Shown one piece after another: positions 227 through 33,209 of a stretch of 33,546 nt of DNA (position 1 is its first letter; each line of letters starts with the position of its first letter). The position numbers were made by a program, and so were the translations under genes. A model generated the notes under the pieces. That model worked only from the letters and a program-made list of their open reading frames with translations. It searched no databases and was not told where the DNA came from. Origin of the DNA: Nanobdellota archaeon (GTDB lineage Archaea; Nanobdellota; Nanobdellia; Woesearchaeales; GW2011-AR9); assembly GCA_018812765.1 (NCBI GenBank), contig JAHJDB010000013.1, positions 1 through 33,546 of the forward strand, read 5' to 3'.

Positions 227-247
227 GTTAGTTGTAAAATTTCAGGC

Positions 248-447: not shown

Positions 448-537
448 AGTTTATAGTAAGTGGTCTTAATTTTAGGAAGCAGATTTTAGGAAGTGGATTT
501 CAGGTATATTTTTAAATTCAAAAGAAATACTCTTCTT

Positions 538-5751: not shown

Positions 5752-7122
5752 TTAATAATTTTTCTCAAGATGGTCCACCAGACTTTTATAATCTAGCATC
5801 TTAAATTTGTAAGATTCTTCTTTTGAATCAGACAACACGATGGTACTAGATTCTGGCCTGGAAGAATCAATAATGATTTTATATGCTTCTTCATAAGTAA
5901 AATTATGGTTGTGTTTCTTGCCATAATCAACAACAACAGCTAAAGCAGCCGCTACAAACGGACCACTAAAAGATGTCCCGCTCCAAAACTGGTTTTCGCT
6001 GGCGCTTTTAGTAGAATAAACAAAATGTCCTGGAGCAAAGACCGGAGCATCAAGATCAGAAAAATCAGCAATTTCTCCTCTAATAGTAGTAGCTCCAACG
6101 CTAATTACGTAAGGGCTGCCACAAGGAAGTTGTTCTGGATCCATCTTGTGAGTATAATAACTGTCATTTCCTGAAGAAGCTTCAATAAGGATGCCTTTTT
6201 TAGCGACTCTTTCCAGAGCCTCACCTAAAACTTTGTTGGCGTCATTCCAGGACATACCTTCCACCTCCTTTGGTTCAGAAAGGCCCCAGCTGTTATTAAG
6301 TACATCCAGATTATCGGCTATTGCCTGATCAAATCCTTCTAAGATATTAGTAAGAGAATTGAAACCTTCTAAATCATGGATTTTATAGACAAAAATTTCC
6401 GCCTCGGGAACAACCTTGTTGATTATGCCTGTAACAAATGTTCCATGACCAAAATCATCGTAAACTTTCTTCTGATTGTAAACGAAATCATGAAATCCTT
6501 TAATCTGGCTTTTAAATTGAGTCACTTCTGGATCTACACCAGTGTCAAGAACACCTATCCTGACTCCTTTTCCAGTGAGACCTTTCGATTTTGGAGCCTC
6601 AGCATGAGTAACTCGATGAGCCCAATAATCTTTCATCTCTGGAACGGGATCCTGGTCATCATCTTTTGCATAAAAGAAAGTTGGAAATTTTCTCTTTTCC
6701 GGATTAGAGCCCCCATGACGAACATAACACTTTAATTTCCCTTCTGTGACTAATTTATCGAGAGTAAAACTACAGGCATTTACTCGAGAAGCTTCCAAAT
6801 AATCAAAATCTTGGACTAAATTCAAAGAGTTATTTTGGAGATTAGAAAGAGAAGTAAATATTTTCTTTGAATCTTGTCCTTCAGCGGCAAAGGTAAGATA
6901 ATCTTTTTTCTCGCAATTTTGAAGAATCTCTTCTTCAATTTTAGAGCTAATCCTTTCTACTACTTCCTTGATACCTTTTTTCGCTGACAAAGGATAATCT
7001 GAAGAAGCTTTATTTTTATTCTTTGACTGAGTTTCAACCGTAAGAGGGATTAAGGTAAGATATGCTGCTGCCGCTCCACCTAATATTGAAGTCAAAACCA
7101 AACCTGTTTTTTTAATAATCAT
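5752..7122 (-). CDS. Secreted or membrane-anchored subtilisin-like serine protease (S8 family)
   Basis: Catalytic triad motifs VLDTGVD, HGTFVTG and GTSFSGPFVAA. N-terminal hydrophobic segment. Perfect SD AGGTGAT (reverse complement of 7127-7133) lies 4 nt upstream of the ATG. Confidence 0.85.
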   Translation of the reverse strand: MIIKKTGLVLTSILGGAAAAYLTLIPLTVETQSKNKNKASSDYPLSAKKGIKEVVERISSKIEEEILQNCEKKDYLTFAAEGQDSKKIFTSLSNLQNNSLNLVQDFDYLEASRVNACSFTLDKLVTEGKLKCYVRHGGSNPEKRKFPTFFYAKDDDQDPVPEMKDYWAHRVTHAEAPKSKGLTGKGVRIGVLDTGVDPEVTQFKSQIKGFHDFVYNQKKVYDDFGHGTFVTGIINKVVPEAEIFVYKIHDLEGFNSLTNILEGFDQAIADNLDVLNNSWGLSEPKEVEGMSWNDANKVLGEALERVAKKGILIEASSGNDSYYTHKMDPEQLPCGSPYVISVGATTIRGEIADFSDLDAPVFAPGHFVYSTKSASENQFWSGTSFSGPFVAAALAVVVDYGKKHNHNFTYEEAYKIIIDSSRPESSTIVLSDSKEESYKFKMLDYKSLVDHLEKNY

Positions 7123-10437: not shown

Positions 10438-13212
10438 ATGGGGAAAAAAAAGACTGATGTTAGGGTTCTAAACAAAAATGGAACCCTCTTAGATATAATT
10501 AAAGAATTCACCGGCTACAAAGGAACAGCAACCACTCGTCTTTTTCTTTCTGAATTAGGTTATGGCACCAGATTTTCTGATCCTAGAATCGCTGAAGGGC
10601 TTAACACCTGGCTGAATGTTAATGGATATAGTAACCAGATTAATCATTTGATTATCAGCGGAGGAATCTTCCCAGAATTCCCCCCTCTTTATAGCGTAGG
10701 TAATGCCGAAAGGATGCGGCTTCTTGATCAAGACCCAGAGAAAAAAGAAACTCCTACCTCCCCGAGAATTGAAAACTTATTTGAACACTTATTAGGCCCT
10801 AAAGATGCCGCCAATTTTGCTGAATATCGAAAGAAATGGTTGACTGGAAAAATTAATACTTGGGAAGATTGTAAGCAGATGGCTAGCAAACAACTAGAGA
10901 CTACCCTTTCAGGAATGGAAATCTCCCGGATAGATTATTGCCACGGTGATGAAGATAGATTTAACATGAGGTACGAGGAAGAATTAAAAGTTAATCGCTT
11001 GGCAAAAGAAGCAAGAGGATACATTAAAAGCCTTAAGGATCAGTTGAAAGAACTAGAAAAAGAAGTAGTTGTTTACAGCAGAGAAAGGGCCGACGAAAGT
11101 GTAAAATTTGCTAAGATTAATGTGGAACTTAGCGTCCTTAAATCTATTAAACCCAAGCTTACTAAACACTTAAGATCTAAAAAACCAAAAGTGAAAGAAT
11201 TCATTAATCGCTTGATCTCAGAAAATGAAGACGGACTTTTCCAAGATTTAAATCAAAAACAGAAAGACGATCTTAGACGCAGATTAAAGACAATAGAAGA
11301 TGAAACTTCTTTCAATGTACTTTACCAAGATAAGGCAGACGTAACGAAAAATTCAGAGACCAAACGTAAAGAAGCGGGTAAAAACCTTAATGATACAAAT
11401 AAAAAGATAAAACCTTTAGAAGAAGAGATTTCGGTAATTGAAAGACAGCTTGAACAAGGTGATGCTATAACTATCTTCACTAAAAGAGCAAGAATCAGCC
11501 CTATTGAAGCGGAATGGATGTATAAAAGTGTTAAAGATCAATATATCAAGGATCTCTTTGATTGTTTTCCTGAAAAATACCGTGATCGTTTAACAACGCA
11601 TGTAAGTGGATCTGCAAAATTGATTAATATTACTTATGGAGAAGGGAAAGATGACATCCTTAAAGAAGCAGATTTAAATGTGATTAATGGAAATATCCTC
11701 GTTATGCATAATACTCGCTTCAGCAGTAATGCAACCTCCCTTAACGGGTTAAGTGATGCTCAGCAAGAATTACTATGGAGAAAAGCATTGGAAAAAATAG
11801 TCCATGAATCAAAAGGCCTTATCCCTGAAACAATTGTTATCGCTCATGGAGCCGGAGGTTTAGGTGTCACTAGAGTGAATGCCTCTCCAGAGTTTAAAGC
11901 TCTTGATGGAAGTTACCGGGAAGAACCTGCCATAGTTACAATCATGACTTTACCAACTATGCATTCTACAGATAAGTTGTTGAAGTTTTATGATAAAGGA
12001 ATGAACAAAAATTGGGGTACAAAACGGTTTGCAAAAAAAATGCATGGAACTGGACCGGTAATAGAAACTATTCTTGAAGACGGAAGCATCATCCCTTTTA
12101 CTATTGATGATTCAAGTTTGATGAAGATTGCTGATCAGAAACGCAAGATGGAAACATTTAAAAAAGAAAGTCCAAAATATAAAGCTGAAGAAGAAAAACT
12201 TCGCCAGATGTGTTCGTTGATGCCAAAAATTAAGGCCATGCTTTCTGATATCCATATCGGCGCCCCTAATTTTGCGGGTACTCCTTCCAATTATGAACGA
12301 TTCAATAGATCCATCAATTATTTAGCTACAAATTATAATAATCTTGATGAATTGATCTTGTCAGAAGTTCCTGACGGAGTTTTGCCTCATACAGAATCAG
12401 ATCGAAAGTTTATGGGAACTCCTTTACCAAAGTTAAGAGAAGAGATTACTGATTATTTGAAAAAAAATCTTCTTGCAAAAGGAGATCAAGTAAGCACAGA
12501 AGATTATTCGGCAGCTCTTGATAGGGTGATCGATTTATTCACCAATTCTTTATCCCAAAACGCTTTGCCTAACCTAGATCAGCAATACGAAGCGATTCGC
12601 CCTTATATTGAAAGAATGGTGAAAGAAATTGCTCCTAACCAAACTACTTTAATGTCCGGAAACCACGCTCGTTCAAGAGAGGGAGCTGATGAAGGGACAA
12701 GATTAGCAGGAATTGTCCGAGAGTATGACAATGAGAATAAAATAAAGATTGTTGTTTCTGATGCTATCGGCCATAAGTTTGGAGGACAAGGAGGAGTAAA
12801 AGAACAAGGTACAGGAAAATTTATCGGGTATCATCATGAACCAGAAGGCGGAAAAAATGCTCTTCCTAGAACTCTTAGCCATCTCTTGTCAAGCAACTAT
12901 GGTTATGATGAATTCTTTACAGGACACATCCATACCCCTTATGTGGGATATGCTAACGGCGTTGCTGTAACTATTGCTCCGGCTTGTGAAGGGCCTACTG
13001 ATTATTCAATCAAACTTCCGGTCGCTTCCTCACCTTACGGAACGATAATTAAGTTCTCTAACGCTGCTCCCATCGGACATCCTGCTAATGAAATTATTTG
13101 GCATGCTTGGCATTTTGTAAATGATAATACTTTAGAAAGAGCAGAGTATAAAAACGATAAGCTTGATAACTTATTAGAGAAACTGGCTGCTCCAGGAAAA
13201 AAGAAACTATAA
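10438..13212 (+). CDS. 924-aa protein with a C-terminal calcineurin-like metallophosphoesterase domain, a degenerate N-terminal copy and a coiled-coil insert; function unknown
   Basis: Motifs LSDIHIG (D at 12247), SGNHA (12658-12669) and TGHIHTP (12922-12933). The N-terminal half aligns by eye but with motif loss (LSELGYG, IAHGAGG). A K/E-rich heptad-like region spans about aa 175-345 (10960-11473). SD AGGGGTG lies at 10426-10432. Confidence 0.55.
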   Translation: MGKKKTDVRVLNKNGTLLDIIKEFTGYKGTATTRLFLSELGYGTRFSDPRIAEGLNTWLNVNGYSNQINHLIISGGIFPEFPPLYSVGNAERMRLLDQDPEKKETPTSPRIENLFEHLLGPKDAANFAEYRKKWLTGKINTWEDCKQMASKQLETTLSGMEISRIDYCHGDEDRFNMRYEEELKVNRLAKEARGYIKSLKDQLKELEKEVVVYSRERADESVKFAKINVELSVLKSIKPKLTKHLRSKKPKVKEFINRLISENEDGLFQDLNQKQKDDLRRRLKTIEDETSFNVLYQDKADVTKNSETKRKEAGKNLNDTNKKIKPLEEEISVIERQLEQGDAITIFTKRARISPIEAEWMYKSVKDQYIKDLFDCFPEKYRDRLTTHVSGSAKLINITYGEGKDDILKEADLNVINGNILVMHNTRFSSNATSLNGLSDAQQELLWRKALEKIVHESKGLIPETIVIAHGAGGLGVTRVNASPEFKALDGSYREEPAIVTIMTLPTMHSTDKLLKFYDKGMNKNWGTKRFAKKMHGTGPVIETILEDGSIIPFTIDDSSLMKIADQKRKMETFKKESPKYKAEEEKLRQMCSLMPKIKAMLSDIHIGAPNFAGTPSNYERFNRSINYLATNYNNLDELILSEVPDGVLPHTESDRKFMGTPLPKLREEITDYLKKNLLAKGDQVSTEDYSAALDRVIDLFTNSLSQNALPNLDQQYEAIRPYIERMVKEIAPNQTTLMSGNHARSREGADEGTRLAGIVREYDNENKIKIVVSDAIGHKFGGQGGVKEQGTGKFIGYHHEPEGGKNALPRTLSHLLSSNYGYDEFFTGHIHTPYVGYANGVAVTIAPACEGPTDYSIKLPVASSPYGTIIKFSNAAPIGHPANEIIWHAWHFVNDNTLERAEYKNDKLDNLLEKLAAPGKKKL

Positions 13213-15813: not shown

Positions 15814-15872
15814 TTTTGGTTATTTATCTTGTTTATTTCCTATTTTTATTTTGTTTTTTGTTTAAGTATAAA

Positions 15873-15946
15873 TGGGGCTGCCCGGATTCGAACCGGGGTT
15901 CAATGGTCCCAAACCATTAGTGATAGCCAAGCTACACTACAGCCCC
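15873..15946 (-). tRNA. tRNA-Pro (anticodon UGG)
   Basis: The reverse complement folds as a 74-nt cloverleaf. Acceptor GGGGCTG/CAGCCCC, anticodon arm AATGG-TTTGGGA-CCATT, T-arm CCCGG-TTCGAAT-CCGGG, discriminator A, no encoded CCA. Confidence 0.88.
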
Positions 15947-16020
15947 AAAGGGGTATTTATAAAGCTTTTGTTATTTTTATTAAATTCGCCCCATTTTAAA
16001 AGGTTTATGGTGAAAATCAC

Positions 16021-21706: not shown

Positions 21707-23404
21707 ATGAAAAAATTAATCTTACTATCGTTACTGTTAGTTTTAATTATACCAGTTGTCATTGCAGAAGATCAAGTAGTGATTAACTCTAAGAATTGGC
21801 AGGATGTTTATTCTGGACAATTGTATGCCAGCCTTAACGATCTTGAAGTTCATTATGTGGCAGAAGAAACACAAGGGTTGCAATTAGTCAATGAAGTTCT
21901 TCCAAGAGACAAGAAAGGAGTATTATTAATTGAATCTGATAAAGAACCCTTCACCTTTGGTTATAAAGCTAAGTTAGAGGGGGTTGGTTTTGAAGTAGAA
22001 GAGTTTATCTCCACCGATGCCAAAAAAACTAATCTAGAACTGGCAAAACTTACTCTCGAAAAGCAAAGTGTCTCCGGCTTTATCATCTTAGATGGTTCTT
22101 TAGGGTATAGTGCTCTTTCCGTGGCTCCTTATGCTATCTTAACTAAATCTTTGGTCCTTTTTGTCGACCGAAATAATATTGATGAAGTTTACCAATTCCT
22201 TCAAGAAAATACTAGGGATATTCTCATTTATGGTAGCGTTGATAGAACAGTTAAAGATAGATTAGCTCCTTTTAGTCCAGAAATAATAAACAATGGTGAC
22301 CGTTACAAAGATAACTTGGAGATGGTCAGAAAGTTCCTAGACCTAAAAGACTCAAAACAAGTCACTTTTACCAACGGAGAATTTATCGAACCGGGCTTAT
22401 TTAACAGTGAATTTCCTTCTATGTTCATTGGTACCAGCAACGTCCCAGACTTTATCATTGATTTTATTAAAGAAACAGATGTCAAAGCAGGAGTGGTCAT
22501 CGGTTATGATCTTTTTCAAAACGCTAAGAAGATCAGAGAACAGACTGGAATAAAAATATTGCTCAAATATGGTCAAGGCCGGAATTCTCAACTTTATGCT
22601 TTAGATGTTTTCCCGATCCCTAGTTTCCAGCCCAGCGTGGATATCAAGGAAGTACGTTATAATGCCTTAACTAAACAGTTAGAAGTTGTCTATGAAAACA
22701 CCGGAGAAGTCTTTTCTTATGTACAAGCCTTATCGATAGATTTACTTGTTAACGATGAATCTGTTGCCCAGGTTGGAGACGAAGAGGCCTTTTTTCTTCA
22801 AGCTAAGGACATCTCAACGGTAACTTACGAGGTGGATTTAAGTAGGTATGTTGATGACGAGGAAACTATTTTTGCTGACAGCAAGATTATTTTAGGAGAC
22901 ACTCCCGGATCATTAGTAAAGTTAATCACAAAAAAAATGGAAGTGGCCGTAATCTCAGTAGAAGATAATTCAGAAATAGAAATTGCCGGTCTAGTTTATA
23001 ATAAAGGAACGCAAAGGTTTGAAATAACAATAAAAAATATCGGAAAAGAGGATGTTTATGCTAATCTTGAATTGATAGACTTAATGATTGCTGGTGAAAA
23101 GGTAAGCTTAGGGGCTGAACAACAAAAAATCAAGCCGGGAAGCTCAGGATTATTTAAGATAAAAGCAACCTTAGAAGAAGTTGATTTTGAAGATAATCCT
23201 CAGGTAACCGTCCATGCTCGTTATGGAGCGAGAGAAGATGCCCTGATTAAGCATTTGACTCAAGAAATGAAATTAGTGGTAAAAAGCAGAGATTATAAGC
23301 CAATCCTTGTTGTAGTGATGGTCTTAGTGATTGTCTGGCTATTGGTCTCATTGTTTAAGAAAAAAAAGAGAGAAGCGGCCCATCACCACCATCATCAATG
23401 GTAA
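21707..23404 (+). CDS. Secreted, C-terminally membrane-anchored surface protein with a CWB2-like alpha/beta repeat region and Ig/CARDB-like domains; ends in a His5 tail
   Basis: Sec-type signal peptide MKKLILLSLLLVLIIPVVIAED. Segments such as GYSALSVAPYAILTKSLVLFV...ILIYGSVDRTVKDRL resemble cell-wall-binding repeat 2. FEITIKNIGKEDVYANLEL is CARDB-like. A TM helix is followed by KKKKREAAHHHHHQW (His codons at 23381-23395). Confidence 0.6.
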   Translation: MKKLILLSLLLVLIIPVVIAEDQVVINSKNWQDVYSGQLYASLNDLEVHYVAEETQGLQLVNEVLPRDKKGVLLIESDKEPFTFGYKAKLEGVGFEVEEFISTDAKKTNLELAKLTLEKQSVSGFIILDGSLGYSALSVAPYAILTKSLVLFVDRNNIDEVYQFLQENTRDILIYGSVDRTVKDRLAPFSPEIINNGDRYKDNLEMVRKFLDLKDSKQVTFTNGEFIEPGLFNSEFPSMFIGTSNVPDFIIDFIKETDVKAGVVIGYDLFQNAKKIREQTGIKILLKYGQGRNSQLYALDVFPIPSFQPSVDIKEVRYNALTKQLEVVYENTGEVFSYVQALSIDLLVNDESVAQVGDEEAFFLQAKDISTVTYEVDLSRYVDDEETIFADSKIILGDTPGSLVKLITKKMEVAVISVEDNSEIEIAGLVYNKGTQRFEITIKNIGKEDVYANLELIDLMIAGEKVSLGAEQQKIKPGSSGLFKIKATLEEVDFEDNPQVTVHARYGAREDALIKHLTQEMKLVVKSRDYKPILVVVMVLVIVWLLVSLFKKKKREAAHHHHHQW

Positions 23405-23416
23405 TAGGGAAATAAG

Positions 23417-24064
23417 ATGGGAGTTAAGAAAATAAAAAGAGCTGTTTTTCTTTTAGGGATAATCGTATTTAGTCTTTTTTTAATTTCTTGTTCTAATAGC
23501 AGTAAACCAAGTAAAGTTCTTGCGGAAATAAATGGAAATTCCTTGACTTTAGATGAATTTAATCAAGAATACTACCTTTTTGGAAACCAAAGGGAGAAGT
23601 ATTTGTTTCTGAATGACGTGGTCATCCCTAACGAGATTCTTCTTTCAGAAGCTCAAAGGCAAGGCTTAGAAGCATCAGAAAAAGAGATTGAGTCAGCCTT
23701 GAACGTCTTTTTAGAAAAAGTAAATATGGAAAAGAAAGATTTCTTTGAAAAAGTGAAAAAAGAACAAGGACTAAGTAAATCAGATATCAATCGCTTGATG
23801 GAAAAAAAAGTTTTGATCTCTAAAATTGTAAAAGATATCATCCCTTCTGAAATTGTTACTGAAGAAGAGATAGAAAAAACTTACCAAGATAATATCAAAT
23901 CCTTTGAAGTTGAAGGAGAAGTCCTGCCTTTAGAAAAAGTTAAAGATAAGATTGAAGACATGCTGATGAAAGTTAATAAAGAAAAAGCAGTCAGAGAATA
24001 CGTTATGGAATTAGCTGAGAAAGGAAATGTTGTAGTTCATACTGAATTTAGTACCTTAAGTTGA
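23417..24064 (+). CDS. Putative lipoprotein with a SurA/PrsA N-terminal-like chaperone domain (no PPIase domain)
   Basis: The signal peptide ends in the lipobox-like LISC. LAEINGNSLTLDEFNQEY and the helical K/E-rich remainder resemble the SurA_N domain. Confidence 0.45.
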   Translation: MGVKKIKRAVFLLGIIVFSLFLISCSNSSKPSKVLAEINGNSLTLDEFNQEYYLFGNQREKYLFLNDVVIPNEILLSEAQRQGLEASEKEIESALNVFLEKVNMEKKDFFEKVKKEQGLSKSDINRLMEKKVLISKIVKDIIPSEIVTEEEIEKTYQDNIKSFEVEGEVLPLEKVKDKIEDMLMKVNKEKAVREYVMELAEKGNVVVHTEFSTLS

Positions 24065-24143
24065 GTGTTGGTTGATAATTTCTTTTAAAAGATATATTAA
24101 AAAAAACGAAGCATTTTAATAACCTCAAATATTTATTATTACT

Positions 24144-25703
24144 ATGAAAGGAAGGTGGATAGAAGTAATGATCACTTCAGTATGCATGCTTTTCTTAACT
24201 ACGGTTGTTTTATACATTTATCCTCCGGGGGGAATTACCGGTTATATCATTGCTCAAGGAGGAAATGTTACAGAAGCGAATTTATCTAGCGCAAAAAGTT
24301 CTGATTATTGGCATGGTTTTTATGGACAGATCTTAGTTGATCCTGGTACAACTAGCACTCCTACTTCTTTAGCAACAGGGGGCTCGATGACTGAATTTAA
24401 CTTAACTTTCTCTTGCAGTCCACCTCATATTTATGCTTCAGCAGAATATCCTTCTAACTTAAATCCAATTACTAAAGGAAATGTAACTGCTCTTGACAAT
24501 TATCTCGGATTAAATGCAAGCCATCCCGAATCTGGGACAAGCATCTTTACTAATCTAACAGATAACTTTATTATTAATGGAACTGTTCTTCTGAATGTTC
24601 CTGTTGCTTATACTTTAGTCAATAATCTTTCCAACACTACTTTTGATCTAGGTTTGATGGATTCGGAAGAAACTTTATATTTTACAACACATAATGTAAG
24701 TGATAAACCTGGATTTAACAGCCAACTTTTAGATTATCAAATGATGGTTCCGGTAAATCAAAGCAGCCTCACTTATTATTTTTATTCCGACTGTCCTGTT
24801 TCAAACTGTTCAGCCCCAAGTGGTTTTGTAGGAAGTTTGAATGCCTTTTTACATGACGATAATAAAAGTGTTGATCTGAATTGGAGCGGAACAAGCGACT
24901 CTTTTAGAGTTTATTATTCAACTAACATTTCCGCCATAGTTAATCTCGATACTAACAATGTTCATTCTTCGGTCACAGTTGTAAATGGAATTACAGATAA
25001 TAATTGGACAGACTATAATGCTTCCCTAGATCAAAAAAGATACTATACTGTCGCAGCAGTCTCAGGTAGTTGTATCAGTGCTATCAATGATACTTGGGGC
25101 AAATTTACTTATTATTATGAAGCGCCAGTTTCCTCTATTTTTGGATCTTTATCTTCTGACAGAATTGCTATCTACCTAAATGTCAGCTATGACGCGGAAA
25201 CTTTTTTACAAGGTATTCCTGATTCTTTTAACCCGACCATCTCCAGATTAGATAAATCTAATGTTTCCGGAGAATTCTTTACTACCCATGTTAAAGGACT
25301 AAACGATGGAAATAATTTTGATTTGGAGATTATTAAAGGATATCAATTAACTGTAGATGGTTATTTTAACCAGACTATTGTAGGAAGAATCATGCCCACA
25401 CCATACATCTTAAATTATGAAACTCCTTATTCCAGTTTTTATGGAACTTTGGCCACCAATTGGAATGGAATATATGATTTTAATAGAACTTATTCAGCGG
25501 AAAGCTTCCTTCAAGATATCCCCCCTTCCTTAAACCCGACCATCTCAAGATTAGATAAATCCGATGCCTCCGGAGAATTCCTAACCACTCATGTCAGAGG
25601 ACTGAACGATGGGAATAATTTTAATATAGACTTAGGAATTGGATATGCTATTACTGTAGATGATAATTTCAATCACACCCTTTGTACAAACTGTTTTGAT
25701 TAA
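24144..25703 (+). CDS. Secreted or anchored sequon-rich protein with a C-terminal tandem ~101-aa duplication; function unknown
   Basis: N-terminal hydrophobic helix and many N-x-S/T sites. Units at 25110-25412 and 25413-25700 share NPTISRLDKS..SGEF.TTHV.GLNDGNNF. ATG 24168 is an alternative start, preceded by AAGGTGGA at 24152-24159. Confidence 0.55.
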   Translation: MKGRWIEVMITSVCMLFLTTVVLYIYPPGGITGYIIAQGGNVTEANLSSAKSSDYWHGFYGQILVDPGTTSTPTSLATGGSMTEFNLTFSCSPPHIYASAEYPSNLNPITKGNVTALDNYLGLNASHPESGTSIFTNLTDNFIINGTVLLNVPVAYTLVNNLSNTTFDLGLMDSEETLYFTTHNVSDKPGFNSQLLDYQMMVPVNQSSLTYYFYSDCPVSNCSAPSGFVGSLNAFLHDDNKSVDLNWSGTSDSFRVYYSTNISAIVNLDTNNVHSSVTVVNGITDNNWTDYNASLDQKRYYTVAAVSGSCISAINDTWGKFTYYYEAPVSSIFGSLSSDRIAIYLNVSYDAETFLQGIPDSFNPTISRLDKSNVSGEFFTTHVKGLNDGNNFDLEIIKGYQLTVDGYFNQTIVGRIMPTPYILNYETPYSSFYGTLATNWNGIYDFNRTYSAESFLQDIPPSLNPTISRLDKSDASGEFLTTHVRGLNDGNNFNIDLGIGYAITVDDNFNHTLCTNCFD

Positions 25704-25718
25704 AAAGGAAAACAAAAA

Positions 25719-26756
25719 ATGAAAACCAAAAAAATAACCGGAATGATATTGTTAATATCTTTAGCCTTATTATTTCTTCCTTCAGGCTTGGCCTTATCTA
25801 AACCTGTTGCTGGGATATTAATTTTTGATAAAGAGATACAATCTTTAGAAGTTAATGTTTATGTAAAAGTTAATTCTCCTTTAAACGGAAAACAAGTCTG
25901 TAAAGTAAATCCTTCCGTCACTAACGGACCCGACGGCAGTTTTGCTTCTAATCTGAATAATCTAGTTTTAAGAGATTTTCCTACCACCAACTGTAATTCT
26001 TTCTGGAAAGGAGGAGATCCAATCTGGTATGAAGCTGAATTTAAAGGACAACAATATTCTTCTTCTGCAGAAAAAATAAAACTAGGCACGGGATTACAAT
26101 TTCTAGAGAATCTAAAATTAGAAGAGGTTGCTTTAGATACAGAAACTCCTGCTAGTGCAGGAAGTGGTTCTGGTGGGAGCGGAGGTTCTGCAGAAATACC
26201 TTCAGAAGCTCAGGAATCTAAGCTAGTCTTACCGGAAATTTCCGCTGTGCTTTCTTTAACACAAGATGATAATTCCATAGAATCAACAGTGAATTTAGAA
26301 TTACTTAATGATGTAAAAAGTGAAATTACTGTAAAAGTGATCTTGTTTTCCTTGCCGGATGAAAAGATTGCTTCTTCTTTAGAAAAAAACTTATTTATTA
26401 AATCTAAAATCAAAGAGAAATTTGTTTTTGATTCTTTTAACCTTAGCCCAGGAAGATATCAGGCTCAGGCCTTGGTATATTTTCAAAAAAAAATGGTGGC
26501 GGCTTCAAATATAGAAAAATTCTTTATCAGAACAGAACAGATGATTGAAGATATAAAACAAGAAAATCTCGCCGGAAAGGCCGCGAAACAGACTTTTAGA
26601 GAATCAAGTTTAAATCTTACCCTGTTCTTATTACTGTTGATAATCATAATCTTAGTTATCCTTCTGCTGTTTAAAAAATACCGCAAGGTCAAGATGATTA
26701 AGAAAATGATCAAAAAAATTGAAAATTTAGGAAACTTGGAAAATAAGAAGAACTGA
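25719..26756 (+). CDS. Secreted, C-terminally anchored protein sharing its N-terminal domain with the 1853-aa protein
   Basis: The signal peptide ends in GLALSKPVAG. About aa 24-135 aligns with aa 23-137 of the 27306 gene product. A Gly/Ser linker SAGSGSGGSGGS is present, followed by a TM helix and basic tail. Confidence 0.6.
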   Translation: MKTKKITGMILLISLALLFLPSGLALSKPVAGILIFDKEIQSLEVNVYVKVNSPLNGKQVCKVNPSVTNGPDGSFASNLNNLVLRDFPTTNCNSFWKGGDPIWYEAEFKGQQYSSSAEKIKLGTGLQFLENLKLEEVALDTETPASAGSGSGGSGGSAEIPSEAQESKLVLPEISAVLSLTQDDNSIESTVNLELLNDVKSEITVKVILFSLPDEKIASSLEKNLFIKSKIKEKFVFDSFNLSPGRYQAQALVYFQKKMVAASNIEKFFIRTEQMIEDIKQENLAGKAAKQTFRESSLNLTLFLLLLIIIILVILLLFKKYRKVKMIKKMIKKIENLGNLENKKN

Positions 26757-26992
26757 GAAAAAGCTAAACTAAGATTAGTTAAGATACTAAAAAAAAGTAG
26801 TTTTCTTTATGTGAAAAATAGCCAACGCATTTTTATGATTTTAAGAATATTTTCGATAAATACTTTAAATAGAATAATATAATTTTTATTGAAACTTCAA
26901 CTGTACTTAAAAAAAATATTCAAATCAGACCTTTTTTAGTTCTTTTTCTAACTATCCAAAATTATTTTTAAAGCTCTTTTTCTAAAAAGAAA

Positions 26993-27022
26993 CCATTTTT
27001 GGTATATTTATCCCAAAAACGG
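26993..27022 (+). promoter_or_regulatory. Imperfect inverted repeat CCATTTTTGG-N10-CCAAAAACGG, a candidate operator next to the TATA box of the wHTH/giant-gene operon
   Basis: The arms match at 9 of 10 positions. The right arm ends 2-3 nt before TATA-like AAGTTTAAAAAG (27024-27035), which is ~25 nt upstream of ATG 27058. Confidence 0.4.
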
Positions 27023-27057
27023 TAAGTTTAAAAAGACATTTAGTCTTATTTTAAAAT

Positions 27058-27309
27058 ATGCTGGCGTACTTGGAAGGCCTTGTTGATAGAAAGACTTTAG
27101 CTATTATTACTGCCCTTCATAGTAAACCAGACCAATTATTTCATCTAAATTCTTTAGCGCAAGAAGCAAAGGTACCAGTCACTTCTACAGCGAGAATCAT
27201 CAAGAAACTTGTAGCAAAATCTTTTGCAGAAGAAATCAAAGTAGGGAAACTTTCCCTCTATAAATTAGCTGATAACAACAAAAATAAGGAGATCGGTAAA
27301 TTAATATGA
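27058..27309 (+). CDS. Small winged-helix (MarR/ArsR-like) DNA-binding protein
   Basis: 83 aa. LAIITALHSKPDQLFHLNSLAQEAKVPVTSTARIIKKLVAKSFAEEIKVGKLSLYKL fits a helix-turn-helix plus wing. The stop overlaps the next ATG (ATGA at 27306-27309). Confidence 0.6.
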   Translation: MLAYLEGLVDRKTLAIITALHSKPDQLFHLNSLAQEAKVPVTSTARIIKKLVAKSFAEEIKVGKLSLYKLADNNKNKEIGKLI

Positions 27310-30300
27310 ATAAAAAGAAAATGATGTTATTCCTGTATCTCTTCTTCCTAGTTTTATCAGCTAGTTTTACCCTTGCTCTCACCAAACCTATTGCTGGGTT
27401 TGTCTTCCAGAATGATTCTTCTATTGCCCAAAATGCCACCATGACTGTTTATGTTAATATTTCCATTATGGCCGGTAATTTTACTTGCCACATTGTACCG
27501 AGTGTGTTTAGTGGAGGAGACGGTTCCTTCTCCACAAACTTAGCTAACTTAAAATTTTCTGATAACAGTGATTGTAGTGGATCCTGGGAAACAGGAGACC
27601 TTATCTGGGCGGAAGGAAATGGATCTACAGTGATTCCTAGTATACAAGGAAATGGAATTAGCACACCAGAAGGAATAGAATCGGGAACTGGATTGCAATA
27701 TATAGGTAATGTCACTTTAGCTCCTGGACCAGATCTTACTGCGCCGATAGTACAGCTAATCTCTCCAGCAAACGGTTCTGTAACAACTACCGGAAATGTT
27801 ATCTTTAGCTATAATGTTACAGATAATTCATCCATCGCTAATTGCAGCTTGATCTTCAACGGAGTAATCAATGAAACTGACACGACTGTCACGAAAGATA
27901 TCACTCAAGACTTTACCAAAACTAATTTGCCTGACGGATTGTTAAATTGGTCCATTAATTGTACGGATAGTTCCGGAAATAGGAATGGAACAGAAACATG
28001 GATCTTAAATATCTCCAAGATTGGAATCTTGCAAGCAACTCTAATCAATCCTACTACTGATATTTCTGTCCTCAAGAATCAATTCTTCACTTTTATCGCT
28101 CAAGTAACCTGTGTAGGGGGAAGCTGTGGAAATGTTAACGCTACTCTTGATCCTATCACTTTTGAAAAGAAGAAAGTTTCCTTCTTTACTAAAATTCTTT
28201 ATTTACTGAAAGATATCTTCAATGGAAATCTGATCACCGGAATGGTGACCGGAGGGGTAGTGCCTACCACTCCTTCCACTCCTTTCTGGACCAATTCTTC
28301 TAATCCGGCTAACTCTGCAGATTTCCCCTGCCTTGCTAATATGCTAGAGGGTTCCAGTTGTAACACAACCTGGTATGTTAATGCCACAGGAGGAGTGGAA
28401 ACTGTCCACGAATTCTTTGCTTTCTTCAATTCTACGACTTATCTAGATGTAAGTAATGAAACTGCCCATGTCAATATTACCATCACCGAACAGAATAACC
28501 CTCTGGTTTTTGATCTGATACCTTTAGCGAACACAAGTTTCAACATCTCCACAGGTATAGAAATTGGAGCAAATGTTACAGATGATAACAATGTTTCTGT
28601 AGTTCTAGCGAACATAACTTTCCCGAACGGGACAAGACAACAGATAACTTTATCTAACACCTTAGGTGATAAGTATAATGGCACTTTTACCATACCTAAC
28701 TTGAAAGGCCAATTTAATGTTGTTTTTATCGCCAATGATACTTCTAATAATATCAACAATACTGAAACGACTTTCTTTGTAGGAGTAGATAATAATAATC
28801 CATCTATATTTAATCTTATACCTACAGCAGGAAGCTCATTTAACATCTCCACCAGTATCCAAATTGCTGCTGACGTTACTGATGATGTGGGAGTGAGTGT
28901 AGTCACAGCTAATATTACTTTCCCGAATGGAACGGTACAACAAATAACTTTAAGTTCAGCTATAGGTGCAAAATATAACAATTCCTTCGCTATTCCTCTC
29001 TTGTTAGGGCAATATAACATCACCTTTAGGGCTAACGATACCAGCAACAACATCAATGATACAGAAAGCACTTACTTCCTAGCCGTCGATAATGTAGCTC
29101 CCGTGTTCTCCAACATTGTAGAGTCTCCTACTGACCCGACCACTTATAGTCCAGGAAGAGTTTACTTCTTTAACATTACCTGGACAGATAACATTGCGAT
29201 GGGAACAGTAATCATCCAATTTAACGGAACAAATTTCACTTCAGAAGTACAGAACATCAGCAGTGTCTATATGTTCAACAGGACGGATTTGGCCGTAGGA
29301 ACTTATAATTACACTTGGTTTGCCAATGACACTTCTGGAAACCTTAACCAAACTACTCAGACTTATACCATCAACAAAGCGGTCTCGGAAGTGAACCTAA
29401 CCTTGAACGGAGCTGACGCCAACATTAACGTAGAAGTAGGGTCGATAGTAAATATTACGGGTACAAGAGTTACCGGCGAAGGAGAGATCCAACTATACAG
29501 GAATGGTACTTTGATCAATTCGGGAGCACCAATTATTTCAAATTTGTCGACGTTCAGCTCTTTAGGTGTGTTTAACATCACTGTAATTTATACGGCTACA
29601 CAGAATTATACTGCCAGCCAGGAAACACATCTTGTTACCGTTGGAGATGCTACGCCGCCAAACGTAACTAACGTAACCGCTAATCCTAATATCATCAACC
29701 AAACACAAGTTACAGAAATCAATGCCACGGTTGTGGATAATGTAGAAGTGGATGTAGTCATCGCCCAGATCACTTTCCCGAACGGAACAAAGATCAATCA
29801 GACCATGACTAACGTCTCTGCTCAGTATTCTACTACATTTAATACCACGTTGACTTCTCCGATCGGAATTTATAATGTTTCAATCTTCGCCAACGATACC
29901 AGCAATAACAAAAATTATACAGAAACAACTACCTTTACAGTAATTGATGATACTCCGCCAAACGTAACGGCCTTAAGGCCATTGAACGGAACAGTCTTTA
30001 ATGTCTCAAACGTGATTGAAATTGCCGCAAATGTGACTGATAATATCGGAGTAAGTGTTGTTACGGCTAATATCACTATGCCGAATGGAACTGTGCAACA
30101 GCTAACTTTAAATCATACTATCGGTGCAAAATATAACAATTCTTTTACTATCCCTTTGGTAATAGGACAATATAACATTACAATCATTGCTAATGATACC
30201 AGCAACAATATCAATGATACAGAAAAAACTTCTTTTGTTGCCAACGATACTGGTTTCCTTTACGTGAGGATCATTAACCCTCTCTCTTTTAGTAACTTTG

Positions 30301-32867
30301 CTCAAAACACAGGAGTATTAATCACAGCTCTGGTTGAAGATAATGTTGCTGTTGATACTGTACTTGCTAATGTTACCACCCCTAATTCTTCCAGTTTCCT
30401 GTTAGAACTTGGTTATCACGGTGTAGACGATATCTATAATGTAACTTTCACCCATACCGAAATTACCGGCATTTATAATGTCAGGATTATCGCCAATGAT
30501 ACTTCCAATAATATTAACGACACTGTAACTAGAAACTTTAATGTCCAGGCTGCTGATATTCCTTTAGTAAGTTTAGTCTCTCCTGCCAACGGAGCTGCTT
30601 CCAATAATAACACCGTCATCTTTACTTGTAATGCCAGCGATGATGAACGCATAATCAATATAACCCTTTACCACAATATAAGCGGTTCTTTTGCAGCAAA
30701 CCAAACCGTTAATGTTTCAGGAGCATCTAACCAGACTAGTTTCATCGTAGATAATGTAGTTGAAGGAACCTATGCCTGGAACTGTTTAGCTGTAGATAAC
30801 CAAAGCCATTCTGTCTTTGCCCTGGTTAATTTCACCTTTACTATCGATCAGAAACCGCCGAATGTTACAAATCTCTCTCCGATCCAAAATAGTACTTTTA
30901 CAATCGGCTCTTCCCTGAACATTAATGCTACAGTCAAGGATGATGTTTCTGTGGATACAGTTTTAGCGAACATAACTCTTCCTAACGGAACAGTACAACA
31001 ATTAATCTTAACGGATGATAATTCCGACGATATCTATAACTCTTCGTTTACAATACCTTTGCTAACTGGAACTTACAACATTACATTCATCGCTAATGAT
31101 ACAGCTGGAAATATCAATAACACTGAAAAAACTAATTTCATCGCCCCAGGGATTGATACCTCTCCTAATATTACCCTAGTCTCACCAGCCAACGGCGCTT
31201 CTTTTGAAACTAGTACCACTACTGACGTTATTTTCTTCTGTAATGCTACCGACGATTCATCACTAATCAACTTGTCTTTATATATAACCAGCTCAAGCAA
31301 CACTAATTTTAATTTAAGTCAGACCTTTAATGTCAGTGGAACTTCTAACAGCAGCAATTGGACCTTAACCTTAACTCAAGGAAGCTATACCTGGAACTGT
31401 CTTGCTTACGATAATTCCTCTCAGTCCTCTTTCGCTAGCTCGAACCGAACCTTAACCGTTAGTGCTCCTGCACCTGCTCCCTCTCCTGGAGGCGGAGGAG
31501 GAGGTGGGGGAGGAGGAGGAGGCGGTGGCTTCATAGCTCCATGTACAGAAGATTGGGAGTGTGGGGATTGGTCTCCTCAAGAATGTCCTCCTTCAGAGAT
31601 ACAGACTAGAACCTGTACTGATCTAAATGGATGTGGGGCGACAGATGATAAACCTCCTGAAACAAGGACTTGTGAGTACAAAAAATTGAAAAAAATAGAT
31701 TTAGCCATCATTGATTACCCTCAAAGCATAGGCCTAAAAGAAAAGCCTACTGTTAAAATAAAAGTGAGCAATACTGGCAGTGAGCAATTGAAAGAGCTAG
31801 TATTAAATTTTGAAATCAGTCCAGGCTGGTCAAAACCTCAAAATGTTTCTATCCCAGTTTTAGACGTTGGAGAAACTACAACTATTGATGTGGAGATCGA
31901 GAATGAAATCTGTACTTCAGAAGAAGAATTGATCCTCCCTCCAAAGATGGAATTGACTGCTGCTGTTGAAGGAAACGGAGTAAAAGACCAGGATTCAATC
32001 TTACTTCCACTGAATGTTTCTTCTGGCTTAAGTGTATCGACAGATAAAAACAGTTATTTTAGCGGAGAAAACATGAGAGTTTGCATCTTCTATTACAATG
32101 ACGGCCAAGAAGATTTGGACGAGCTGGAATTTGATGTCTTGATCCAGTCGCTTAAAGATGGGGACTTTTTAAAAGTGGACCATGTCTTCTCTTTCCAATC
32201 CTCTAAGAATGAACTATTAGCGGTAAGAAAAAATATCCTACTGGATAAAGTTTTTGCAACTGCTGATTATAACCTGATAATAGAAATGTTTAACGGTGAA
32301 AGATTCTCCAAAGAAGATAAAATTGATGAAGCAGAAACAAAGGTATTCATAAATGGATTTATCGAACAGAAGATTTTAGGAGAACCGGGCCTAAATTATA
32401 CCACCCTGTATAATTTAGAAGAACATACCTTAACTGTGAATGGTTTTGATGATACTTTTGCTTATATCACCTTCCAGTCATCCCCACAGAATTATACTTT
32501 GATATTACTAGAAGAAAAAACTCTCCTGGACAGCTTAAGTGCAATTTATCTGGGCGAAAAAGAAGAATATGAAGAAGGCAAGTTAATTAAAAAAGCTGAT
32601 ATCAGATTAAGATGGAAAGAAAGAAAAGAAGAAGCGGTGGCTGGTTCAGATTATCAAATAATTGATTTAGATAAAGGAACTGAAGCAGTTGGCTTGAAAA
32701 AAGGAAGTTCTTTCCCAATTATATTACTCTGGGTAATCATAACTTTAATAATCGCATTGATCATGGCCATAATTTCCTGGATCCATCACCATTGGATCCT
32801 TGAAGGAAGAAAAATAAAAGTTGAGAAGATCAGCAAATTAAAAATTTTCCAGAAGAAAAGGGAATAG
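27306..32867 (+). CDS. 1853-aa surface protein: signal peptide, shared head domain, ~100-aa Ig-like repeat array, Gly14 linker, Cys-rich module, CARDB-like region, C-terminal TM anchor
   Basis: The signal peptide ends in FTLALTKPIAG. ANITFPNGT-type units sit at aa 435, 535, 820, 921, 1021 and 1221. SPANG...CNA(S/T)DD...WNC units sit at aa 153, 1092 and 1293. Gly14 lies at 31489-31530, the six-Cys module at 31531-31680, and the TM helix at 32712-32783, followed by HHH. Confidence 0.8.
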   Translation: MNKKKMMLFLYLFFLVLSASFTLALTKPIAGFVFQNDSSIAQNATMTVYVNISIMAGNFTCHIVPSVFSGGDGSFSTNLANLKFSDNSDCSGSWETGDLIWAEGNGSTVIPSIQGNGISTPEGIESGTGLQYIGNVTLAPGPDLTAPIVQLISPANGSVTTTGNVIFSYNVTDNSSIANCSLIFNGVINETDTTVTKDITQDFTKTNLPDGLLNWSINCTDSSGNRNGTETWILNISKIGILQATLINPTTDISVLKNQFFTFIAQVTCVGGSCGNVNATLDPITFEKKKVSFFTKILYLLKDIFNGNLITGMVTGGVVPTTPSTPFWTNSSNPANSADFPCLANMLEGSSCNTTWYVNATGGVETVHEFFAFFNSTTYLDVSNETAHVNITITEQNNPLVFDLIPLANTSFNISTGIEIGANVTDDNNVSVVLANITFPNGTRQQITLSNTLGDKYNGTFTIPNLKGQFNVVFIANDTSNNINNTETTFFVGVDNNNPSIFNLIPTAGSSFNISTSIQIAADVTDDVGVSVVTANITFPNGTVQQITLSSAIGAKYNNSFAIPLLLGQYNITFRANDTSNNINDTESTYFLAVDNVAPVFSNIVESPTDPTTYSPGRVYFFNITWTDNIAMGTVIIQFNGTNFTSEVQNISSVYMFNRTDLAVGTYNYTWFANDTSGNLNQTTQTYTINKAVSEVNLTLNGADANINVEVGSIVNITGTRVTGEGEIQLYRNGTLINSGAPIISNLSTFSSLGVFNITVIYTATQNYTASQETHLVTVGDATPPNVTNVTANPNIINQTQVTEINATVVDNVEVDVVIAQITFPNGTKINQTMTNVSAQYSTTFNTTLTSPIGIYNVSIFANDTSNNKNYTETTTFTVIDDTPPNVTALRPLNGTVFNVSNVIEIAANVTDNIGVSVVTANITMPNGTVQQLTLNHTIGAKYNNSFTIPLVIGQYNITIIANDTSNNINDTEKTSFVANDTGFLYVRIINPLSFSNFAQNTGVLITALVEDNVAVDTVLANVTTPNSSSFLLELGYHGVDDIYNVTFTHTEITGIYNVRIIANDTSNNINDTVTRNFNVQAADIPLVSLVSPANGAASNNNTVIFTCNASDDERIINITLYHNISGSFAANQTVNVSGASNQTSFIVDNVVEGTYAWNCLAVDNQSHSVFALVNFTFTIDQKPPNVTNLSPIQNSTFTIGSSLNINATVKDDVSVDTVLANITLPNGTVQQLILTDDNSDDIYNSSFTIPLLTGTYNITFIANDTAGNINNTEKTNFIAPGIDTSPNITLVSPANGASFETSTTTDVIFFCNATDDSSLINLSLYITSSSNTNFNLSQTFNVSGTSNSSNWTLTLTQGSYTWNCLAYDNSSQSSFASSNRTLTVSAPAPAPSPGGGGGGGGGGGGGGFIAPCTEDWECGDWSPQECPPSEIQTRTCTDLNGCGATDDKPPETRTCEYKKLKKIDLAIIDYPQSIGLKEKPTVKIKVSNTGSEQLKELVLNFEISPGWSKPQNVSIPVLDVGETTTIDVEIENEICTSEEELILPPKMELTAAVEGNGVKDQDSILLPLNVSSGLSVSTDKNSYFSGENMRVCIFYYNDGQEDLDELEFDVLIQSLKDGDFLKVDHVFSFQSSKNELLAVRKNILLDKVFATADYNLIIEMFNGERFSKEDKIDEAETKVFINGFIEQKILGEPGLNYTTLYNLEEHTLTVNGFDDTFAYITFQSSPQNYTLILLEEKTLLDSLSAIYLGEKEEYEEGKLIKKADIRLRWKERKEEAVAGSDYQIIDLDKGTEAVGLKKGSSFPIILLWVIITLIIALIMAIISWIHHHWILEGRKIKVEKISKLKIFQKKRE
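28500..31488 (+). repeat. In-frame array of ~300-nt (100-aa) domain repeats inside the giant gene
   Basis: The GC(G/T)AA(C/T)AT(A/T/C)ACT...CC(G/T)AA(C/T)GG anchor starts at 28608, 28908, 29763, 30066, 30366 and 30966. The spacings are 300, 855, 303, 300 and 600 nt. Units at 28800-29099 and ~29960-30260 remain clearly similar at the DNA level. Confidence 0.8.
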
Positions 32868-32915
32868 ATTTAAATATATTTAAATGATTAAAATAACTTT
32901 AAAGAGGTGTGAAAG

Positions 32916-33209
32916 ATGGTTTTCATCTTTGGAATAGACATACTTTTGGTAGAAATTATTTTTGTACTGACCATTACACTAATTGTTCTTCTTGGATTAC
33001 TGATCTATTTGGTAATCGGCCAAGTTAAATTAAAAAGAGAATTAAAGAAAGTAATCAGCAAAGAAAATGTAGAATTAAATGCTCTAAGAAAAATTGAAGA
33101 AGAAGAAAAAGATAATATCAATTTAGCGAGAACTATCAAATCAGAACTTGACAAACTGCTTTACTCCAGGCTGCAAAGAGCACCTAAAAAAGTTAAGAAA
33201 AAGAACTAA
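32916..33209 (+). CDS. Small single-pass membrane protein with a coiled-coil, basic C-terminus; function unknown
   Basis: 97 aa with N-terminal TM helix ILLVEIIFVLTITLIVLLGLLIYLVIG. SD AGAGGTG at 32901-32907 precedes the ATG. Same strand as the giant gene and 48 nt downstream of it. Confidence 0.5.
   Translation: MVFIFGIDILLVEIIFVLTITLIVLLGLLIYLVIGQVKLKRELKKVISKENVELNALRKIEEEEKDNINLARTIKSELDKLLYSRLQRAPKKVKKKN

Follow-up and report, generated by a model that had tools for sequence, protein, structure and literature searches.

The window analyzed here is a stretch of 33,546 nt, contig JAHJDB010000013.1 of a Nanobdellota archaeon (GCA_018812765.1), and the subject is a cluster of seven plus-strand genes at 21,707-33,209, labeled g1 to g7 from 5' to 3'. 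The cluster was compared with 24 related loci (L numbers). We read the segment as a composite cell-envelope island, in which two conserved cassettes are joined by one fusion protein and which probably serves variable surface display or adhesion (probability of about 0.55). Cassette A consists of g1 and a protein carrying g3N, the N-terminal domain of g3, and is core to the clade. Cassette B consists of a protein carrying g3C, the C-terminal half of g3, together with g4, g5, and g6, and is accessory and patchy. A sequence-only reading of the same DNA had proposed a coordinated surface-display module. The conserved and nonrandom clustering of putatively exported or anchored proteins was borne out, but one indivisible seven-gene system was not, because the cassettes are separable, g2 is confined to a subclade, and g7 is not conserved.

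The strongest evidence of functional coupling in the cluster was the adjacency of g1 and g3N across relatives. Close relatives were located with 10 g1 sequences closer to the window than the 37-sequence alignment of the family. In 12 of the 12 relatives at 48 to 58% g1 identity, the next gene after g1 encoded a g3N protein, and the stop codon of the one often overlapped the start codon of the other. The two genes were also adjacent in L023, at 33% g1 identity, and in L017, where the order is reversed. Thus, g1 and g3N form a conserved gene pair. The lack of synteny in relatives that would have refuted the module proposed from the sequence was not observed. The genes upstream of g1 were different in every lineage. 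The large genes beside the pair also vary by lineage, encoding LamG lectin proteins, CARDB/Big proteins, or the head family described below, and this variable cargo fits an accessory, interaction-oriented role rather than housekeeping.

Cassette B includes the head proteins g4 and g6, and the shared head domain noticed in the sequence-only reading was confirmed (38% identity over 121 aa; E = 3e-17). An exhaustive profile search among 1.84 billion representatives retrieved 54 clusters of the head family at 50% identity, whereas a word-indexed protein search with the same domain gave no matches. The head was always N-terminal and directly followed the signal peptide in the 54 clusters, and the protein lengths were bimodal (297 to 382 aa for g4-like and 1126 to 2481 aa for g6-like proteins), so that the contrast between short-stalked and very long-stalked paralogous heads recurs throughout the family. 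In the long metagenome contigs L019 and L020, the gene order was g3C-domain protein, g4-like gene, g5 homolog, and g6-like gene. The g4-like genes at this position matched at E values of 1e-47 to 2e-48, and g6 homologs of 1157 to 1908 aa in L018 to L020 matched at 1e-197 to 1e-239. The g6-like proteins of L019 and L020 (1564 to 1908 aa) contained 103 to 132 sequons.

It could be supposed that the seven are unrelated secreted-protein genes brought together by chance, without functional coupling. The cassettes do occur independently, g2 and g7 are dispensable or unique, and the large genes beside g1-g3N differ by lineage, as would be expected under this explanation. However, synteny was strong within each cassette, and the two cassettes meet in g3. 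Residues 222 to 519 of g3 were 55% identical to the gene directly upstream of the g4-like gene in L019, and g3C was seen only in loci with a g6-type gene (L015, L019, and L020); therefore, a cassette-A and a cassette-B domain are fused in the window g3. The same fusion occurs in L015, which kept the whole order of g1, g3 with both domains, a short head protein (379 aa), a small open reading frame (ORF), and a long head protein, despite identities of 29 to 50%. The small ORF (5393-5563), an unassigned 56-aa product, overlaps by 4 nt. The two heads of L015 were 37% identical to each other and were barely recognized by the head profile of the window. Together with the retained order, this argues against an accidental juxtaposition and for a joint divergence of the short and the long heads. 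In addition, a g3N gene abuts the g5-head pair in L021. The g3 fusion and the L015 locus contradict pure chance, which we consider very improbable.

Several points weigh against the reading of the segment as one island for surface display. Because cassette B was found apart from cassette A in L019 and L020, with no g1 within 10 kb, and because L003 to L014 carried cassette A with other large surface genes and no head family, the juxtaposition in the window could be incidental. (A 418-aa protein of L019 was considered as a g1 analog and rejected, with an hhalign probability of 6%.) In L006 and L024, g3N paralogs lay within 7 kb of g1 without being adjacent to it, and the contig of the homolog P0045 carried g1 with no adjacent g3N, as judged by gene size and Pfam content alone. 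The window g3 lacks the C-terminal transmembrane (TM) helix that is present in most g1-adjacent g3N proteins. The window g1 itself gave no match to the Pfam family CW_binding_2, and the CWB2 likeness discussed below lies under the Pfam threshold. The export and TM calls were made from Kyte-Doolittle (KD) hydropathy. Finally, the episymbiosis of the lineage is an unproven assumption.

Recomputed ORF coordinates gave intergenic gaps of 12, 79, 15, 301, -4, and 48 nt, in exact agreement with the seven genes and six gaps first described. A strongly hydrophobic N terminus was found in six of the seven genes (g1, g2, g3, g4, g6, and g7) and was absent from all 18 genes upstream of the cluster (Fisher P = 4e-5), consistent with export of the cluster products. 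The earlier count of four N-terminal signals or anchors was therefore too low, while the three proteins with a C-terminal TM helix and a Lys/Arg-rich tail were recovered as g1, g4, and g6. As read from the sequence, no PGF-type motif was seen before the C-terminal TM helix of g1 (...DYKPILVV), g4 (...SSLNLTLF), or g6 (...GSSFPIILL), and these three proteins were rejected as PGF-CTERM/archaeosortase substrates because the motif is absent. No cluster product matched an enzyme family in Pfam and NCBIfam scans, as had been the impression from the sequence. The plus-strand run begins three genes before g1, with genes for a HAD hydrolase, an MBL-fold hydrolase, and Hjc, and strand alone therefore gives no left border.

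Next, we examined the domain structure of g1. The AlphaFold2 (AF2) model, built with 37 homologs, had a pLDDT of 89.8 and a pTM of 0.82 and showed three tandem alpha/beta repeats of about 90 to 100 aa (aa 23-119, 124-213, and 218-290; pLDDT of about 90), two sandwiches (aa 311-416 and 424-526), and helices at aa 2-13 and 531-564. Among the 37 homologs, nine matched CW_binding_2 (PF04122) below threshold (best 20.0 bits against a cutoff of 24.9), and two homologs carried the PGAP label "cell wall-binding repeat-containing." When g1 was aligned by hhalign with the CWB2 triads of Cwp8 (5j6q) and Cwp6 (5j72), whose sequences were recovered from the PDB, a probability of 77.7% (E = 1.9e-5) was obtained over 178 columns covering aa 26-213. 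Because of the AF2 triad, the subthreshold Pfam matches, and the hhalign score, the triad is probably a remote homolog of CWB2; it is best called CWB2-like, as family membership is not established. Of the original description as CWB2-like/CARDB-like, the first half thus stands, whereas CARDB (PF07705) gave no g1 match at E ≤ 1 in Pfam, and that likeness does not go beyond the fold level. With its triad, sandwiches, and TM anchor, g1 does look like the anchored scaffold for which it had been taken. With full-length g1 as the query, Foldseek matched the sandwich half only, to generic tandem Ig-like structures (such as transglutaminase C-domains, RbmA, and FimA), and PDB sequence and profile searches gave nothing useful. 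No domain was common to g1 and g6.

The g1 family comprised at least 52 full-length members of 540 to 610 aa with 33 to 64% identity from end to end, all from DPANN archaea and none with a Pfam domain. Assignment of g1 to the archaellum stator proteins ArlF/ArlG, suggested by JGI "FlaF" names, was rejected, since the NCBIfam equivalog scores were 23.8 and 17.7 bits against a cutoff of 110 and no arl genes are present in the window. The cytoplasmic tail of g1 (window 23366-23401) ends in KKKKREAAHHHHHQW, and the distant homologs P0051 and P0052 showed weak zinc-ribbon matches (below the Pfam cutoff) after the TM helix; these features hint at a metal-binding or signaling role of the tail.

The g3N family returned more than 151 matches, mostly stand-alone secreted proteins of about 230 aa from Woese- and Nanoarchaeota, all annotated as hypothetical and without a Pfam domain. 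In the AF2 model of g3, a helix at aa 4-24 precedes a beta-rich core at aa 56-215 (pLDDT of about 90), and the intervening motif region (aa 27-49) was of low confidence. Foldseek found nothing significant for g3N in the PDB (best E = 0.26) or BFVD, and there was no PDB or NCBIfam sequence match. The domain formed the extreme C terminus of larger secreted proteins, namely, a LamG protein (L010), a 602-aa Ig-type protein (L016), a 1459-aa fn3/CARDB protein (L017), and a 600-aa CARDB protein (L023), and the conserved GN(V/I)T motif was kept also where g3N is internal. Sequons were enriched in the g3N family (721 observed versus 337.6 expected in 86 homologs) and depleted in the g1 family (37 versus 138.8 in 37 homologs); the two neighboring families thus show an opposite N-glycosylation sequon bias. 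The whole of g3 had 23 sequons against 9.9 expected, and its C-terminal part contains a duplication with 61 to 66% identity (E = 2e-31), so both the sequon richness and the internal duplication attributed to g3 were found. A duplication of two protein halves, in contrast, is the wrong register, as the repeat is confined to the C-terminal 200 aa.

Two further observations concern the distribution of these families. Arrays of two to three stand-alone g3N paralogs adjoin an ArsR-type helix-turn-helix (HTH) gene of the HTH_20 family in L006 (1155-3961) and L016 (7331-9540), two distant Woesearchaeota contigs, and represent a second conserved context of the g3N family. Six species-representative metagenome-assembled genomes (MAGs) with g1-g3N (L007, L008, L010, L011, L012, and L014) are labeled "uncultured Methanosarcinales archaeon"; their gene content fits DPANN, and mislabeling or cobinning with a methanogen may be responsible.

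The properties of g1 and g3N would also suit a structural envelope rather than adhesion, with g1 as a SlaB-like membrane stalk and the g3N proteins and/or g6 as a glycosylated S-layer lattice. The g1 family is conserved, full length, and apparently core, with a C-terminal anchor, and its partner is secreted and rich in sequons. Archaeal S-layer proteins typically have glycosylated Ig folds, and the DPANN candidates lack sequence homology to the known ones (bioRxiv 10.1101/2023.10.27.564410). In Woesearchaeota, the genes with the highest expression include those of the S-layer (PMC11606122). However, g4, g5, and g6 are patchy, with 54 head clusters, and are absent from most g1-bearing relatives, so g6 does not behave as a single conserved dominant envelope protein. 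The occurrence of g3N in several paralogs per locus, and as a tail on varied passengers, is unlike a single lattice protein, and g1 is depleted in sequons. An S-layer with its anchor is therefore a better fit for g1 and g3N than for g6, given the excessive patchiness of the g6 family, and for the cluster as a whole we hold this explanation to be unlikely.

A second explanation for g3N is a self-assembling fimbria of the donor-strand or tafi-like kind, in which the paralogs of about 230 aa would form the shaft, passenger-g3N fusions such as LamG-g3N the tip adhesins, and g2 a holding chaperone, with g3N-TM proteins and/or g1 as the membrane base. This arrangement is suggested by the adhesin, which precedes the subunit domain in L010, L016, and L017, by the TM helix after g3N in L003, L005, and L009, by the tandem paralog arrays that adjoin an HTH gene in L006 and L016, and by the conserved N-terminal stretch (aa 27-49), which is unstructured in the monomer model. 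FimA was also among the nonsignificant fold matches of g3N, and haloarchaeal tafi have analogous parts (PMC11821415). In contrast, the 86 g3N family members, compared with the Taf models of NCBIfam, showed no sequence similarity to TafA, TafC, or TafE, by which tafi homology of g3N was rejected, and no pilin was a significant structural match (best Foldseek E = 0.26). No dedicated signal peptidase accompanies the genes, the window containing no peptidase S26 gene, and GN(V/I)T is kept in internal g3N and is a sequon, which is awkward for a donor strand. Assembly of g3N into a fimbria thus appears distinctly improbable.

We next examined g5 and its upstream region. The window copy of g5 scored 17.5 bits for HTH_IclR against a cutoff of 22, but HTH_IclR was matched by five of the five g5 family members (best 8e-6), as were TrmB and MarR. 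The g5 profile gave weak winged-helix matches in the PDB (E values of 0.01 to 0.4; 3r0a at 0.0099, TubR, and MarR). A g5 homolog directly preceded the head-bearing giant gene in L019, L020, L021, and L022, and in L006 it preceded genes for other secreted proteins. The g5 stop codon overlapped or abutted the downstream start in the window, L019, L020, L021, and L006. Taken together, the sequence data support g5 as a probable winged-helix protein dedicated to g6. The regulator proposed from the sequence is favored by the family match and the conserved pairing with g6, although the window copy stays below the Pfam cutoff.

The 301-nt spacer before g5 is T rich, with seven T-runs resembling an archaeal terminator. 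Downstream of the T-runs lies a TATA-like element, TTTAAAAAG, which was found 29 to 31 nt ahead of the start codon of g5 in the window, L019 (region 9582-9640), L020 (about 9610-9620), and L021 (about 1510-1520). This spacing is the expected TATA-box position for a leaderless or short-leader archaeal mRNA. The inverted repeat next to it occurs once in the window (0.06 expected) and, among the 24 loci, only upstream of g5, in L002, which is identical to the window sequence, and in L019; elsewhere, this place is taken by different palindromes. The two elements are a candidate leaderless promoter plus operator. The T-rich spacer and the separate conserved promoter indicate that the cluster is split into at least two transcription units, of which g5-g6 is most likely its own, autoregulated unit, with g1 to g4 forming one or more others.

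Other giant surface genes of the relatives follow small DNA-binding-type genes that are unrelated: a Sigma70_r4_2 HTH gene (3e-9) in L019 (374-613) and L020 (6736-6945), a ribbon-helix-helix-like gene with weak HicB/ParG matches in L005 (17277-17498) and L013 (16633-16953), and the unassigned 56-aa ORF of L015. A small regulator with a giant surface gene appears to be a recurrent design, which suggests one private regulator per giant surface gene.

The giant protein g6 contains about 10 Ig-like repeats, in agreement with the sequence-only reading of it as an 1853-aa repeat protein. About seven repeats of 100 aa are of one type, and three are of the Big_7 type (PF17957; 69.1 bits against a cutoff of 24.1; 5e-19; six stretches). 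The protein had 112 sequons against 39 expected. Weak antibody V-domain-like matches of the head in the PDB (E = 0.013) hint at an Ig-like sandwich. The Gly14 run of g6 (window 31488-31528; GGA/GGT at the DNA level) and a G/S-rich linker in g4 (window 26130-26200) directly follow the predicted extracellular domains, with comparable Gly/Ser runs in the homologs P0175, P0179, and P0182. The Cys-rich module of g6 (C..W.C..WS..C...R.C.D...C) occurs in other long-head proteins and, at 52% identity, in a 752-aa secreted TPR protein of L006 (17057-19315) that is otherwise unrelated and likewise lies downstream of a g5 homolog, with a 219-aa gene between. We take this module to resemble thrombospondin type-1-like repeats.

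The g2 protein passed the Pfam gathering cutoffs for SurA_N_3 (PF13624; 29.9 bits against 27.2) and SurA_N_2 (PF13623; 29.8 against 28.5), and SurA_N_3 was matched by four of the four family members (best 7e-10), so that the SurA-N-like chaperone domain assigned to it is well founded. It has no complete parvulin domain, the Rotamase_2 match being partial (positions 1-58 of 121; E = 0.025), and it gave no PDB sequence match. A g2 homolog with 36 to 40% identity lies between g1 and the g3N gene in one subclade only (L007, L008, and L010). The LISC motif, from which g2 had been called a lipobox protein, is found only in the window copy; the cysteine (L-x-x-C) is missing in all three homologs, and the designation was dropped. 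No homolog of g7 was found in any of the 24 loci, and its Pfam and NCBIfam matches were at noise level. In L018 to L020, the next sizable gene after the g6-like gene was an ORF of about 200 aa whose N terminus was read by eye as ribosomal protein uS2, and in L018 the two are separated by a 95-aa ORF that has no TM segment. On these data, the membership of g7 in the module is doubtful. The coordinates of all features are collected in Table 1.

Table 1. Features of the surface-protein cluster in the window (domain, signal, and promoter entries are predictions)
Feature	Window position (nt)	Residues (aa)	Strand	Description
g1	21707..23404		+	565 aa; type-I membrane protein
g1 signal peptide		1-22	+	By hydropathy
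g1 repeats	21773-22576	23-290	+	Three CWB2-like beta/alpha repeats of ~95 aa (AF2)
g1 beta-sandwiches	22637-23284	311-526	+	Two (AF2)
g1 TM helix	23300-23356	~532-550	+	Followed by KKKKR...HHHHH cytoplasmic tail
g2	23417..24064		+	215 aa; membrane-tethered, SurA-N/PrsA-like chaperone domain
g3	24144..25703	1-519	+	N-domain g3N plus C-terminal half g3C
g3N	24144..24821	1-226	+	N-terminal TM/signal segment, G-N-x-T sequon, beta-rich core
g3N sequon G-N-x-T	24261-24272		+	Invariant or near-invariant in family
g3C	24822..25703	227-519	+	One ~95-aa domain plus duplicated ~90-aa unit
g3C duplicated units	25116-25382 and 25416-25685	325-413 and 425-514	+	
g4	25719..26756		+	345 aa; short head protein with signal peptide, TM helix, and basic tail
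g4 head	25788-26120	24-134	+	Followed by G/S linker and ~130-aa domain
Candidate g5-g6 promoter	26996..27035		+	Inverted repeat, then TATA-like box
Inverted repeat	26996-27019		+	TTTTTGG-N10-CCAAAAA; 8 nt upstream of TATA-like box
TATA-like box	27027-27035		+	TTTAAAAAG; 31 nt before g5 ATG
g5	27058..27309		+	83-aa winged-helix protein; stop overlaps g6 start (ATGA)
g6	27306..32867		+	1853-aa giant head protein; signal peptide, C-terminal TM helix, and basic tail
g6 head	27372-27719	23-138	+	Shared with g4
g6 Ig-like repeats		138-1390	+	~10 repeats, then Gly14 run
g6 Cys-rich module	31542-31679	1413-1458	+	Beta-sandwich-like domains after it
g6 TM helix	32718-32774	1805-1823	+	Basic tail after it
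g7	32916..33209		+	97-aa TM plus coiled-coil protein

Under the preferred reading of two joined surface cassettes, g1 would be exported by the Sec route and would act as a membrane scaffold or receptor that holds g3N-bearing proteins at the surface, and g3N would be a DPANN-specific, beta-rich module that is heavily N-glycosylated, probably by an AglB-type pathway. Where present, g2 would be a membrane-tethered foldase for cassette-A substrates. In cassette B, g5 would be translationally coupled to g6 and would autoregulate g5-g6 through the inverted repeat beside the TATA box. As the C termini of g4 and g6 are predicted to be anchored, the heads would be distal; g6 may project tens of nanometers, as estimated from its domain count, and g4 would present a head of this kind close to the membrane. 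Cassette B most likely serves variable surface display or adhesion, and adhesion may extend to attachment to a host. Glycosylated Ig-fold surface proteins have been predicted to mediate surface interactions in DPANN archaea (bioRxiv 10.1101/2023.10.27.564410).

A more specific scheme is that g1-g3N is a noncovalent surface-display system of DPANN archaea coupled to a two-tier head contact device. The triad of g1, in whose family sequons are depleted 3.8-fold, would be kept free of N-glycans and would be a lectin-like membrane receptor with the invariant N-glycosylated GN(V/I)T site of g3N as its ligand, so that g3N passengers (LamG lectins, CARDB/Ig stalks, and g3C) could be docked and exchanged on the cell surface. 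The fused g3C would recruit the coevolving short and long heads of g4 and g6, of which the long one would capture a partner and the short one would hold it close, and each giant gene would be switched by its own small DNA-binding protein. We regard this scheme, taken as a whole, as quite unlikely.

The organism and the rest of the window were also characterized. The G+C content per 1-kb window was 32 to 41%, mostly about 35%. The presence of genes for PCNA, Hjc resolvase, ribosomal protein L37ae, prefoldin, and an RNase J-like beta-CASP protein indicates archaeal DNA, and the named homologs of the cluster proteins were all from Nanoarchaeota, Woesearchaeota, or Pacearchaeota MAGs. By its sequence, the source organism is a Woesearchaeales-type (GTDB Nanoarchaeota) DPANN archaeon. 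The identical sequence is present in MAG GCA_043813405.1 and in run SRR2540949. Scans of the region for tRNA, Rfam, and tandem-repeat elements found only tRNA-Pro (15872-15947) and the Gly-run repeat. A plus-strand ORF of 924 aa (10438-13212), also present in the NCBI MAG contig (L001), has no Pfam match, TM segment, or signal-like N terminus and is an unannotated large cytoplasmic protein. A minus-strand subtilase gene (5752-7122; Peptidase_S8, 3.5e-32), whose product has a moderately hydrophobic N terminus (KD 1.83), may encode a secreted protease a few kilobases from the surface cluster.

Literature searches found no description of these families or of their organization, and Pfam has no family for g1, g3N, or the head. 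Surface-protein and adhesin clusters of archaea are known as such, and glycosylated Ig-fold surface proteins have been predicted to matter in DPANN symbiosis (bioRxiv 10.1101/2023.10.27.564410). What is new is the pairing of g1 with g3N, the g3N domain itself, which has no sequence or Foldseek (PDB and BFVD) match, and the cassette in which a regulator stands between a short-head and a long-head gene. How DPANN archaea recognize and hold partner cells is an open question, and the candidate surface proteins are almost all unannotated hypotheticals. The clade-wide g1-g3N pair offers a confident structural model of g1 and a possible glycan-based docking logic, and the recurrent short-head/regulator/giant-head cassette, with its conserved promoter and candidate operator, is a testable unit. 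The family definitions could annotate hundreds of nameless DPANN proteins, and the region provides concrete targets for metaproteomics, labeling in electron cryotomography, and binding assays in Woesearchaeales enrichments. If the genes encode ordinary envelope components, the region would still be a useful marker set for the cell wall of the lineage; if glycan-based display by g1 and g3N should prove true, it would be an archaeal analog of CWB2-PSII or cohesin-dockerin display.

Finally, we compared the cluster with known systems. Like the CWB2 triads of Cwp/SlpA proteins in Clostridioides difficile, g1 has three tandem beta/alpha repeats of about 95 aa, and the triad is the anchoring part of the surface system in the Cwp proteins, as it would be in g1. 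Unlike them, g1 is itself anchored by a TM helix, and all of its Pfam scores are below the gathering cutoff. We know of no PSII-type wall polymer, the ligand class of CWB2 in C. difficile, in an archaeal source of this kind. With SurA, PpiD, and PrsA, g2 shares a SurA-like N-terminal domain and, as in PrsA and PpiD, a membrane tether, and it differs from the SurA/PrsA foldases in lacking a complete parvulin domain and in its archaeal setting. Bacterial display of the cohesin-dockerin or SLH type is comparable in function only: a terminal module, g3N, is carried on diverse passengers, with the scaffold gene g1 beside it. There is no sequence or fold relationship of these systems to g1 or g3N, and binding of g3N by g1 is what we would predict.

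Haloarchaeal tafi consist of LamG-tipped TafC, the small Ig-like TafA and TafE, the membrane anchor TafF, and the small regulator TafB (PMC11821415). The likeness to TafA-G lies in the combination of small secreted subunits, a LamG subunit, a membrane-anchored protein, and a small regulator, and relatives of the window encode LamG-g3N proteins. The differences are that g3N matched neither the NCBIfam TafC model nor any other Taf model that NCBIfam may contain and gave no fold match, and that the cluster has no dedicated signal peptidase and no twin-arginine motif visible by eye in the N termini. The surface proteins of other DPANN archaea, namely, those of Nanobdella aerobiophila MJ1, NEQ300 of N. 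equitans, and Micr_00292 of Micrarchaeum, have no homology to characterized S-layer proteins and have been proposed to act in symbiont-host contact (bioRxiv 10.1101/2023.10.27.564410). The cluster proteins share with them a signal peptide, sequons, Ig-like folds, and lectin-like passengers, but belong to other families and are distinguished by an operon-level g1/g3N pair, a head pair, and a winged-helix gene.

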